DNA of 64,000 nt, from the IMG/VR virus record IMGVR_UViG_3300037424_000434, positions 128,001 through 192,000 of that record, one strand, 5' to 3'. The notes beneath the pieces were generated by a model, which was not told where the DNA came from, did not search any database, and was given only the letters and a program-made list of their open reading frames with translations. Positions 19,076-46,486 of the stretch are shown here, in pieces. Position 1 is the stretch's first letter, and each line of letters starts with the position of its first letter. The position numbers and the translations under genes are program-made. This DNA comes from a virus. Lineage: Duplodnaviria > Caudoviricetes.

Positions 19076-19977
19076 TGTTATCTACTAGGTTTAAAATGGG
19101 GAGCAACAAATCTCCCATTGAAATTTCGGGAGATTTGTTATGGACATTAGATAATCCAAATGCTTATTCAACCCCTGTCAATGATTGGTTTGGGTTTTCG
19201 GTTGGTATAAGTGAATCATATGCGATTGTTGGTGCATATACAGAAGATGATGCCGGGGGCACCGAGTCAGGAAAAGCTTATATATTCGATAATACTACAG
19301 GAGCATTATTATGGACGTTAAATAATCCAAATGCGTATTCAACCTCTACAGGAGATTGGTTCGGTTCTTCGGTTGGTATAAGTGAAACATATGCAATTGT
19401 TGGTGCCTATACAGAAGATGATGCTGGCGGTACTAATTCGGGTAAAGCTTATATCTTTAATCCTGCTACTGGATCATTATTATGGACGTTAAACGATCCA
19501 AATGCTTACGGTACCTCTGCTGGTGATTGGTTTGGGTATTCGGTTGCTATAAGTGAATCATATGCAATTGTTGGGGCATATTTTGAAGACGATGCCGGGG
19601 GCACCGAGTCAGGAAAAGCTTATATATTTAATCCAGCTACAGGAGCATTATTATGGACATTAGACAATCCAAATGCTTATGACACGTCTTCTTACGATTA
19701 CTTTGGTTATTCGGTTGGTATAAGTGAATCATATGCAATTGTTAGTGCATATGGTGAAGATGAGGGGGCAGATGAAGATTCAGGAAAAGCTTATATATTT
19801 AATCCAGCTACAGGAGCATTATTATGGACATTAGATAATCCAAATGCGTATTCAACCTCTACAGGAGACTGGTTCGGTTCTTCAGTTGGTATAAGCGAAT
19901 CACATGCAATTGTTGGGGCAAAGTTTGAAGATGATGCTGGGGGTACCGACTCAGGAAAAGCTTACATATTTATATAA
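19075..19977 (+). CDS. FG-GAP (integrin-alpha-type beta-propeller) repeat protein
   Basis: Five 57-aa repeats with FGxSV...AIVGA...SGKAYIF, the FG-GAP signature; 171-bp DNA periodicity. Confidence 0.85.
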   Translation: MLSTRFKMGSNKSPIEISGDLLWTLDNPNAYSTPVNDWFGFSVGISESYAIVGAYTEDDAGGTESGKAYIFDNTTGALLWTLNNPNAYSTSTGDWFGSSVGISETYAIVGAYTEDDAGGTNSGKAYIFNPATGSLLWTLNDPNAYGTSAGDWFGYSVAISESYAIVGAYFEDDAGGTESGKAYIFNPATGALLWTLDNPNAYDTSSYDYFGYSVGISESYAIVSAYGEDEGADEDSGKAYIFNPATGALLWTLDNPNAYSTSTGDWFGSSVGISESHAIVGAKFEDDAGGTDSGKAYIFI

Positions 19978-34272: not shown

Positions 34273-35514
34273 ATGATCAAGCAAAGTGTGGATAATATAA
34301 TACCAAAGATAACCACTTTAACGGGTATATATCGTGGGGTGGTCGAGAACAATGTTGATCCCCAAAAAATGGGGAGATGCCAGATACGGGTATGGGGGTT
34401 GCATGACGAGCTAAAAGAGGCGTCAAGAATAGAGGGCATTCCAACCGCTAGTCTGCCGTGGTCTGAGCCATGTTTGGGGCTTCTGGAAGGGTCTGTGACT
34501 GGAGCTGGGCTGTTTTCCGTACCATTGCAAGGGTCTCATGTATTTCTCTTCTTTGAGGGGGGTAATTGGAACGCTCCAAGATATTTTGCCACCGCGCCGG
34601 GCCTGCCAACAGAAGCCCCCGACACATCCAAGGGGTTTAATGATCCAGAAGGTAAGTATCCACGTTCTGATAGATTAAATGAGCCTGATTTTCATAGACT
34701 TGCTCGTGGAGAAATAACCGGTACAATAGTTGAACACAAAAACGAAAACCTTGATCTTGGTGTAACCAAAGCAGATACTAGCACGTGGGATGAACCAGAA
34801 TCAGCATATGCCGCGACATACCCTAACAATATAGTTCTTTCCACCCACAGAGGTATATTGATAGAACTTGATAACACAGCGGGAAAGGAGAGGATTCATT
34901 TATACCATCCATCGAATACCTATATCGAAATAGATGTTGAGGGTAATGTGGTTTTCAAAAACGAAGGAAACAAATTTGAGATAACAAAGGGTGATAGAAA
35001 TAAACACATATTTGCCGACGATAACGAAACTATCGATATCGATAAGACAAAAAAAATCGGATCAAACGAGACTGTTGATGTTGGATTGAACAGAACAACA
35101 ACTATTGGTACTAATGAATCTCTTGATATTGGGAGCAACGAAACAGTCGTTGTTGGAATAGATGCAACCAAGAATGTTGGTAATAACTTGGTTGTAACGG
35201 TAGGAACTAATTCTACAAAAACTGTTGGGGCAAATGAACAGATAGATATTACAGGTAACCTAACAGAAACCATTGGGGGTAACTCTACAAAAACTGTTGG
35301 GGCAAATGAACAGATAGACATTACAGGTAACCTAACAGAAACGGTTGGATCTGGGTGGACCATAATAGTCTCGGGACAGGCGATTATTAACGCCACGGGG
35401 GACGTGGAAGTTGTTGCGGGGGGGTCTGCTAGTGTAACTTCTACAGGACCAGCAACAGTACAAGGATCTATTGGTGTGCTGAAAGGTACCTCCAACACGT
35501 TCACGGTGTCCTAA
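34273..35514 (+). CDS. gp5: Baseplate central spike protein, no lysozyme domain
   Basis: N-terminal OB fold (GVVENNVDPQKMGRCQIRVWG...LPWS), ERIHLYHPS motif and 8-residue beta-helix repeats. Confidence 0.85.
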   Translation: MIKQSVDNIIPKITTLTGIYRGVVENNVDPQKMGRCQIRVWGLHDELKEASRIEGIPTASLPWSEPCLGLLEGSVTGAGLFSVPLQGSHVFLFFEGGNWNAPRYFATAPGLPTEAPDTSKGFNDPEGKYPRSDRLNEPDFHRLARGEITGTIVEHKNENLDLGVTKADTSTWDEPESAYAATYPNNIVLSTHRGILIELDNTAGKERIHLYHPSNTYIEIDVEGNVVFKNEGNKFEITKGDRNKHIFADDNETIDIDKTKKIGSNETVDVGLNRTTTIGTNESLDIGSNETVVVGIDATKNVGNNLVVTVGTNSTKTVGANEQIDITGNLTETIGGNSTKTVGANEQIDITGNLTETVGSGWTIIVSGQAIINATGDVEVVAGGSASVTSTGPATVQGSIGVLKGTSNTFTVS

Positions 35515-45475: not shown

Positions 45476-45847
45476 ATGAGACTGTATAGGTATTTGGCAT
45501 TATCAAGCACGGATGAAGGGGTAAGCACCTTTCGTGCCTTGAAATTGGATTTGGTTGAGGAAGAAACTGGCAACACTGCTTTGGTCAAAAGAATGAGCGA
45601 AGACTTTGCATTAGATGACACCGCTATACAGTTATTAGAGAGAGCCAATGCAGAGCTAAAAAAGATGTATAGAGGTAAGTTGAAGTTTGATTTCTGCACA
45701 GAAAACCAAGGGTTTACTCCCGATGAAGTTAGGATTGAAATAAAAAAAGTTCGTCAGTTGAAAGAAAAGTGGTTCAAATTTAATGATGAGCTTTCGAGTA
45801 TTCAAATAGATTTTGAGGACAAGCTCAAACAAGGTTTACAAAAGTAA
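45476..45847 (+). CDS. Hypothetical protein
   Basis: 123-aa ORF with a GGAG RBS; no recognisable motif. Confidence 0.65.
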   Translation: MRLYRYLALSSTDEGVSTFRALKLDLVEEETGNTALVKRMSEDFALDDTAIQLLERANAELKKMYRGKLKFDFCTENQGFTPDEVRIEIKKVRQLKEKWFKFNDELSSIQIDFEDKLKQGLQK

Positions 45848-45901
45848 GTTTTAATGATACTATATATCTCAGATAATACTATATTTGTACGGAGAAGGTA
45901 T

Positions 45902-46486
45902 ATGGGGTCAACAGAAAACAATGAATTGGATATAGAAGAGATTGATATAGAAGAGATTGATATAGAAGAGATTGATATAGAAGAGATTGATATAGAAGAG
46001 ATTGATATAGAAGAGATTGATATAGAAGACGAAGTGGTTATGGACGAGAAGGCGCTGTATTACGTGAGGAACAAAGATCTCATCCCCGAAATGGAAAAGC
46101 TGGCCGCTAAAGGTGTTATGTCTGAAGAACTTGGAAGAATGCTATTATTAATAGCAAAAAATCTTTCCAATAAAGGGAATTTTATAAATTATACATGGAA
46201 AGAAGACATGGTACAAGAAGCCGCGTTGACTTGTTGTAAATATTTAAAAAACTTTGATCTTAAAAAATCAAATAACCCCTTTTCATACATAACAACAATA
46301 TGTACTCATGCTTTTGTTAATTATATCAATAAACAGAGAAAGCACTCAGATATCAAAGATACATGTTTCAATGGAAAAGACCACATGTCAGACAGCGAAT
46401 TTGGATTTACAGTAAAAGCTATAGATTACACTTCAATGGCACCTGTCACTGAAAAGAAAAAGAAAAAGAAGAAAACTGATAGTTAA
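45902..46486 (+). CDS. gp55: Late transcription sigma factor
   Basis: YYVRNKDL...LIAKNLSNKGNFINYTWKEDMVQEA...NFD...NPFSYITTICTHAFVNYINKQRK matches the T4 gp55 pattern. Confidence 0.9.
   Translation: MGSTENNELDIEEIDIEEIDIEEIDIEEIDIEEIDIEEIDIEDEVVMDEKALYYVRNKDLIPEMEKLAAKGVMSEELGRMLLLIAKNLSNKGNFINYTWKEDMVQEAALTCCKYLKNFDLKKSNNPFSYITTICTHAFVNYINKQRKHSDIKDTCFNGKDHMSDSEFGFTVKAIDYTSMAPVTEKKKKKKKTDS
45929..46029 (+). repeat. Perfect in-frame 15-bp tandem repeat (GATATAGAAGAGATT x6 plus partial) encoding DIEEI
   Basis: Six identical copies at 45929-46018 plus GATATAGAAGA. Confidence 0.95.

Follow-up and report, generated by a model that had tools for sequence, protein, structure and literature searches.

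The window analysed in this study, a stretch of 64,000 nt, corresponds to bases 128001–192000 of a 235,765-bp IMG/VR virus record, the genome of an uncultured T4-like phage (39 % G+C, estimated 98 % complete). Its plus strand harbours a gene for a gp55-type late sigma factor (Table 1), flanked on either side by tail-fibre-like genes and followed some 4–6 kb downstream by gp47 and gp46. A second gp55-type gene is absent from the genome, so that the gene is single-copy; as the only one in a genome that is 98 % complete, this copy, which bears the tandem array described below, must work. The protein matches PHROG 234 (E-value 5.7e-35), T4 gp55 in PDB 7d7c_F (E-value 2.9e-13) and Pfam Sigma70_r2, the latter at 28.4 bits against a cut-off of 24. 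In an AlphaFold2 model built on a 54-sequence alignment, the four helices of the core reach pLDDT values above 90, and a Foldseek search with this model returned 7d7c_F as the top and sole significant match (target-normalised TM 0.71, rmsd 1.3 A, 108 columns, 36 % identity). Residues E70, D74 and E77 in H3 of T4 gp55 contact the clamp helices of RNA polymerase (PMC7892883), and two of these three acidic residues are kept here, with D102 aligning to E70 and E106 to D74, and L109 standing opposite E77. Both D102 and E106 are invariant in alignment A1, as is D102 in alignment A3.

Table 1. Features of the late sigma factor locus, in window positions
Feature	Position	Strand	Basis or remark
Sigma70-type promoter with extended −10 (TTTACA, 17 nt, TGnTACTAT)	45835..45863	+	Consensus scan, 9 of 12 with TG
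Shine–Dalgarno site GGAGAAGG, serving ATG 45902	45891..45898	+	Anti-SD duplex −6.6 kcal/mol
gp55-type late sigma factor gene, 194 codons + stop	45902..46486	+	Only one in genome
N-terminal leader, residues 1–52, net charge −25, no predicted secondary structure	45902..46057	+	Leader statistics, AlphaFold2
Perfect tandem array of a 15-bp unit (6.7 copies), translated as (DIEEI)x6-DIE	45929..46029	+	Tandem Repeats Finder, reading, translation
Alternative in-frame ATG (MDEK), unlikely main start	46040..46042	+	SD energy −1.0 kcal/mol
Sigma region-2-like core, helices at residues 57–70, 75–89, 100–117 and 126–162	46058..46387	+	AlphaFold2 and fold match
C-terminal poly-lysine run (K x7) after the conserved AIDYT motif	46454..46474	+	In most close homologues

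The T4 late promoter motif, TATAAATA, occurs 49 times in the genome, and 18 of these occurrences (37 %) precede an ORF of at least 100 aa in sense, at an upstream distance of 60 nt or less; in this crude test, six AT-rich control octamers give values of 3–24 %. At its other end, the sigma protein shows no evident likeness to the acidic-hydrophobic motif by which T4 gp55 binds the sliding clamp. The lysine-encoding stretch at the 3′ end of the gene is also flagged by Tandem Repeats Finder, as AAAAGA x3.2. Members of this gp55 subfamily share a conserved C-terminal AIDYT(V/S)M, after which come five to eight lysines (window 46410–46483), with P0034, P0044 and P0050 displaying long acidic C-terminal tails in place of the poly-lysine end.

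The tandem array and its copy number

Near the 5′ end of the sigma gene lies a tandem array with a period of 15 and 6.7 copies, which Tandem Repeats Finder reports with 100 % matches and no indels. Direct reading of the sequence agrees with this and gives GATATAGAAGAGATT as the unit. In the sigma frame the array encodes L-(DIEEI)x6-DIED, such that the product from ATG 45902 consists of a short head, L-(DIEEI)x6-DIED-EVV-MDEK and then the conserved core. Both other forward frames contain a stop in every unit (TAG and TGA), and the array is open in the sigma frame only. An array this perfect is beyond chance, and no second array of the unit exists anywhere in the 235,765-bp genome. With its perfect head-to-tail units and frame-keeping length, it has the make-up of an in-frame VNTR. 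The sequence-only reading, which had described six identical 15-bp units that keep the frame within a gp55-type late sigma gene, is therefore upheld on the repeat, and equally on the gene by the PHROG, Pfam, PDB and fold matches. The perfect identity of the units marks the array as young: it is a real, recent in-frame expansion within the translated leader of the sole gp55-type sigma gene, and its cause was presumably slippage or unequal recombination.

Much of the negative charge of the leader comes with the array. Once the six full units are subtracted, a leader of approximately 22 residues with a net charge of about −7 is left, which is within the normal range of the family. Residues 1–56 harbour neither helix nor strand in the AlphaFold2 model (pLDDT 50–73), and the leader is thus predicted to be disordered.

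The copy number of the array was checked by k-mer depth in the independent k=31 contigs of Logan for two sediment runs: X1, the probable source run, and X2, a run from a different study. As must happen with k=31, these contigs break at the array. In X1, the flanking contigs display depths of 18.7 and 18.8, and the loop falls into unitigs of 11 and 4 k-mers, precisely the division expected from the assembled phase. The depths of these loop unitigs, 85 and 65, correspond to multiplicities of 4.55 and 3.48 relative to the flanks, where six full units should give 5 and 4, and five units 4 and 3. The k-mer depths in X1 thus support the presence of the array with 5–6 units. In X2, the array loop is found at a depth of 3.8 together with an identical right flank at a depth of 2, which is too thin for a count of units. 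A further contig of X1, 376 nt in length and of low depth (3.1x), matches 41 nt of the array (window 45994–46034) with four differences; its flanks are unrelated and rich in lysine codons, indicating another sequence in the sample with a related DIEE-type stretch.

Short in-frame arrays are found elsewhere in this phage genome as well, namely (EAPVVEEVV)x4.7, (PE)x22, PE/PDQK, (TATDT)x4.3 and a 12-bp unit x3.9, and suggest a genome-wide habit of making low-complexity linkers via slippage. Perfect or near-perfect in-frame arrays lie outside the window at G000:C1 56244–56370, 83624–83755, 216632–216733, 223451–223515 and 3418–3464. Repeats of longer period also occur: within the window, a degenerate 171-bp repeat of 4.9 copies at 80 % identity (19138–19972) and a 72-bp repeat of 1.9 copies at 96 % (35208–35342), and outside it another 171-bp array (G000:C1 48848–50010).

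Promoter, start codon and translation of the leader

The sigma gene possesses a putative promoter of its own (Table 1), from which an RNA start near 45870 would be expected. Four of the five relatives aligned, the syntenic L001, L002, L011 and L012, have kept the −35 hexamer, the spacing of 17 nt and a −10 element of the form TAnnAT (alignment A2). The first ATG of the ORF, at 45854, falls inside this promoter; with an RNA start around 45870 it lies upstream of the transcript, leaving 45902 as the first AUG. The Shine–Dalgarno site of ATG 45902, with an anti-SD energy of −6.6 kcal/mol, compares well with the median of −5.9 kcal/mol for the first ATGs of 150 long ORFs in this genome, and is stronger than that of 96 % of 826 internal ATGs. 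A GGAG(G) occupies the same place in L001 and L013. The energies for the MDEK ATG at 46040 (−1.0 kcal/mol) and for ATG 45854 (−0.9 kcal/mol) are both like those of internal ATGs.

In alignments with the closest homologues (78–81 % identity), the array is bordered on both sides by residues that run collinear with coding leader sequence in these proteins. The head reads M-G-S-T-E-N-N-E here and M-S-S-N-E-T-E-E in P0004, and the E-V-V immediately before MDEK aligns with a coding E-V-V in P0002–P0004. This collinearity indicates that the array was inserted mid-way in an ancestral coding leader. Translation thus almost certainly starts at ATG 45902 and not at MDEK 46040, and a gene with its own promoter and this start would place the tail on every sigma molecule. 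The acidic N-terminal tail proposed from sequence by the first reading, translated from ATG 45902, accordingly stands as most likely.

Other roles for the array at the level of RNA or decoding were considered and rejected. RNA folding of 45870–46060 reveals no structure beyond that of shuffled sequences (z 0.01), and lends no support to the array as a structured RNA or leader element. Codon usage likewise gives no support to a rare-codon ramp, since the long ORFs of the phage make common use of each of the five codons in the unit, with ATA accounting for 40 % of isoleucine codons; the phage also encodes a tRNA-Ile(UAU). Pausing at Shine–Dalgarno-like sites within the unit was likewise rejected, given that the stretch before 46040, which includes the last units, reaches only −1.0 kcal/mol. 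The tRNA-Ile(UAU) gene belongs to a cluster of 27 tRNA genes identified by ARAGORN outside the window (G000:C1 196973–210709), a region that also contains a tmRNA gene with the tag AEDNFALAA.

Charged leaders among gp55-type homologues

Fifty-six close metagenomic homologues of the sigma protein were found, with identities of 50–81 % and lengths mostly of 145–170 residues. Their conserved core begins at a YYVRNKDL motif; the leader that precedes this motif is typically short (median 11 residues) and mildly acidic, with a net negative charge in 72 % of cases (n=57). No other part of the family varies as much as this leader, which spans 0–27 residues in most members. A distant set of 148 further gp55-type proteins was drawn from a search of 1.84 billion cluster representatives, and the core was located by HMM in all 205 proteins. 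Neither the 57 close nor the 148 distant homologues contain the repeat. At the DNA level, no near or distant relatives were found among GenBank phages, and the matches to GenBank phage proteins all start at residue 45 or later of the sigma protein. An exact 26-mer of the array has no counterpart in IMG/VR, and a near-identical relative was found neither in GenBank phages, IMG/VR and the JGI metagenomes nor among the close metagenomic homologues. Two candidates were discarded. The 26-mer search in the JGI metagenomes gave a single match (L010), where DIEEIDIED occurs by chance in a bacterial-type protein of 535 aa that is unrelated. P0065 (1156 residues) was picked up by its match to the tail, but it is not a sigma factor; it is unrelated and contains a long (V/M)DVEE repeat.

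Long leaders are nonetheless present in the family, with 22 of the 205 proteins possessing at least 45 residues before the core, and the strongly charged examples are of two kinds, either acidic/aliphatic or lysine-rich and basic. The acidic/aliphatic kind includes P0114 (68 aa, −22), P0158 (66 aa, −16), P0184 (51 aa, −11), P0195 (56 aa, −10) and P0102 (57 aa, −7), and several of these leaders display I/V-D/E patterns that resemble DIEEI. Amongst the close homologues, P0046 carries an unrelated, non-repetitive leader of 53–54 aa and −20 behind a strong Shine–Dalgarno site. P0046, P0114, P0158, P0184 and P0195 fall in different 50 %-identity clusters, and acidic/aliphatic leaders of 50–68 residues recur in at least four other lineages. 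For L013, L015, L016 and L017, inspection of the DNA reveals no well-placed alternative start before the conserved core, and their acidic leaders must therefore be translated. In L016 and L017 the sigma gene is directly followed by Mre11-like (Metallophos) and Rad50-like (AAA_23/SMC_N) genes, and in L015 a 50-residue ORF lies between the sigma gene and its Mre11-like and Rad50-like genes.

The basic leaders reach net charges of +24 (P0201), +20 (P0153) and +16 (P0143 and P0173). Together with P0165, these four proteins possess lysine-rich, histone-H1-like leaders of 60–180 residues, some of which are visibly repetitive (AKK/VKK); the C-termini of gp55-type sigmas with lysine-rich leaders are acidic, or neutral in one weaker case (P0148). 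There is a degree of pairing between the two ends of these proteins, in that the four most acidic leaders all occur with basic C-termini, and the basic leaders with acidic or neutral ones. Across the set, the charges of leader and C-terminus correlate with a Spearman coefficient of −0.34, falling to −0.14 (p 0.09) when close relatives are dropped. Long acidic leaders have arisen independently elsewhere, and the repeat itself is absent from every one of them. The recurrence of such leaders argues that acidity at this position may be useful.

Possible roles of the tail and comparison with known systems

The explanation preferred here, to which we give about an even chance, is that the array encodes a functional polyanionic tail produced by slippage; by analogy, it could plausibly act in the manner of region 1.1 of sigma70 or of the delta tail in Bacillus. 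Slippage or unequal recombination would have expanded the 15-bp unit in the leader of the sole late sigma, and transcription from the gene's own host-sigma70-type promoter, with translation from ATG 45902, would ensure that all sigma carries the product. The tail would then constitute a flexible polyanionic appendage, anchored next to the region-2 domain at the clamp helices, where it might compete electrostatically with nucleic acid for the basic DNA channel of the polymerase; alternatively, or additionally, it might mask the poly-lysine C-terminus of the sigma itself. Non-specific or premature engagement of DNA could thereby be damped, and the opening of late promoters shaped, as occurs with region 1.1 and the delta tail. 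We infer this electrostatic mechanism by analogy with those two systems.

A serious rival, possible if somewhat unlikely, is that the tail is a neutral passenger, i.e. a translated slippage accident in a permissive, disordered leader, with no selected role and probably destined to contract or degenerate. This genome alone has the repeat, whose perfect identity marks it as young and perhaps transient, and the hypervariable length of the leader speaks of weak constraint. The other in-frame arrays of the genome could similarly reflect a general tendency to slippage rather than a special device, and the pairing of N- and C-terminal charge is weak once close relatives are removed. In addition, the N-terminal region of T4 gp55 is disordered, poorly conserved and often absent amongst homologues (PMC7892883), an observation compatible with a permissive site and equally with a regulatory one that has been overlooked. 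Set against a neutral origin is the non-random nature of the long leaders, which across independent lineages are either strongly acidic/aliphatic or strongly lysine-rich. Furthermore, the composition of the unit (Asp, Glu and Ile) matches that of the acidic tails without repeats in P0184, P0195 and P0102, and in a single-copy gene that is essential to a T4-type life cycle a harmful addition of 30 residues and −18 would be purged.

The first reading had gone further and suggested a rheostat, in which variants in unit number within the population tune the timing of late transcription or the affinity for the polymerase. This proposal, which is a subset of the functional tail and not exclusive of it, appears doubtful. 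Copy-number variation would find its substrate in perfect units whose length is a multiple of three, and the multiplicities in X1 fall between those for five and six units, as a mixture could produce; however, by our estimate (approximately 23x reads) they are also within about one Poisson SD of a pure 6- or 5-unit population. Translation from the MDEK ATG, which would make the array an untranslated leader or a DNA or RNA element (iterons or structured RNA), is very unlikely. Its product of 148 residues would match the usual family length of 145–160, and the alignment to PHROG 234 begins only at residue 63 of the sigma protein. This ATG nevertheless lacks the typical Shine–Dalgarno site seen at ATG 45902, the residues preceding it align with coding residues of close homologues, and the array is open only in the sigma frame; an RNA element would find no support in folding, nor a DNA element in a unit that occurs nowhere else in the genome. 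That the array or its copy number was made by the assembler, a concern already voiced in the sequence-only reading, is scarcely credible: a perfect 101-bp repeat of short period is hard for short-read assemblers, and the Logan contigs do break there, but loop depths in X1 that fit 5–6 units, a loop that splits as the assembled phase predicts, and the same loop with an identical right flank in the run of a second study indicate that it is not an artefact.

Returning to the functional polyanionic tail, a broader version can be entertained, albeit as a long shot. According to this, gp55-type sigmas would possess a repeatedly evolved, charged N-terminal module that auto-regulates engagement with DNA or the clamp, being acidic where the C-terminus is basic and lysine-rich where the C-terminus is acidic, and its length here, and with it the timing of late genes, would be heritably variable via a slippage-prone repeat.

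The gene family is well known, T4 late transcription being a textbook system and gp55 a minimal sigma that recognises only an 8-bp promoter. By comparison, a gp55 tail built from a repeat, and the repeated appearance of charged N-terminal tails among gp55 relatives, appear to be new, with neither found described in the searchable literature, and a search on in-frame repeats in phage genes likewise yielded nothing specific. An N-terminus that has been dismissed as disordered and dispensable seems to have grown, here and in several unrelated lineages, into a polyanionic or polycationic tail of 50–70 residues, which suggests that this minimal sigma is subject to a further level of regulation that has gone unstudied. 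A tail made of identical 5-residue units also offers a ready-made series, from zero to n units, in which a charged disordered tail can be set against promoter opening. Should copy number vary in nature, the array would count among the rare examples of a developmental clock that a phage adjusts through repeat slippage.

In comparison with T4 gp55 (PDB 7D7C/7D7D), the protein shares the region-2-like four-helix core, the lack of a region 4 and the small size. The two proteins differ at both ends: in the alignment, the core motif of T4 gp55 is located near residue 8–10, after a leader of only a few residues, whilst the leader here is repeat-built, extends to 52 residues and has a net charge of −25; and T4 gp55 ends in its clamp-binding motif, where this protein has AIDYT and poly-lysine. 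As with region 1.1 of sigma70, the tail is N-terminal on a sigma factor, strongly acidic and tethered beside region 2. Region 1.1, however, folds as a helical domain and has a Pfam family to itself, and neither the whole protein nor residues 1–56 (E-value up to 10) yielded a Pfam match to Sigma70_r1_1, nor does the tail have predicted secondary structure. The comparison drawn by the sequence-only reading is thus reasonable as analogy and fails as homology, the tail being at most an analogue of region 1.1. A DNA mimic of the pentapeptide-repeat beta-helix type was also rejected, for want of any Pfam match or any strand in the AlphaFold2 model; I-D-I-E-E fits the A(D/N)LXX pattern superficially, and seven units would amount to less than two beta-helix coils. 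In sigma70, region 1.1 lies within the downstream DNA channel and departs from it when the open complex forms (PMC2988021), and a flexible tail of 52 residues on a region-2 domain could reach this channel.

A further parallel is provided by the Bacillus subtilis delta subunit, the C-terminal region of which is disordered with a net charge of −47 (PMC7749165), and which together with HelD has been implicated in the recycling of RNA polymerase (PMC7749165, PMC2966349). Both tails are disordered, repetitive and polyanionic, that of delta being borne by an accessory protein bound to the polymerase. The resemblance ends there, as delta is a different, cellular protein with its tail at the other terminus, and the tail contains no perfect repeat at the DNA level. 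Lastly, the array resembles bacterial in-frame VNTR or contingency loci in its perfect units, in a unit length divisible by three and in its position inside a coding region. Copy-number polymorphism is the defining property of such loci. The array described here resides in the gene for a phage transcription factor and not in one for a surface protein.
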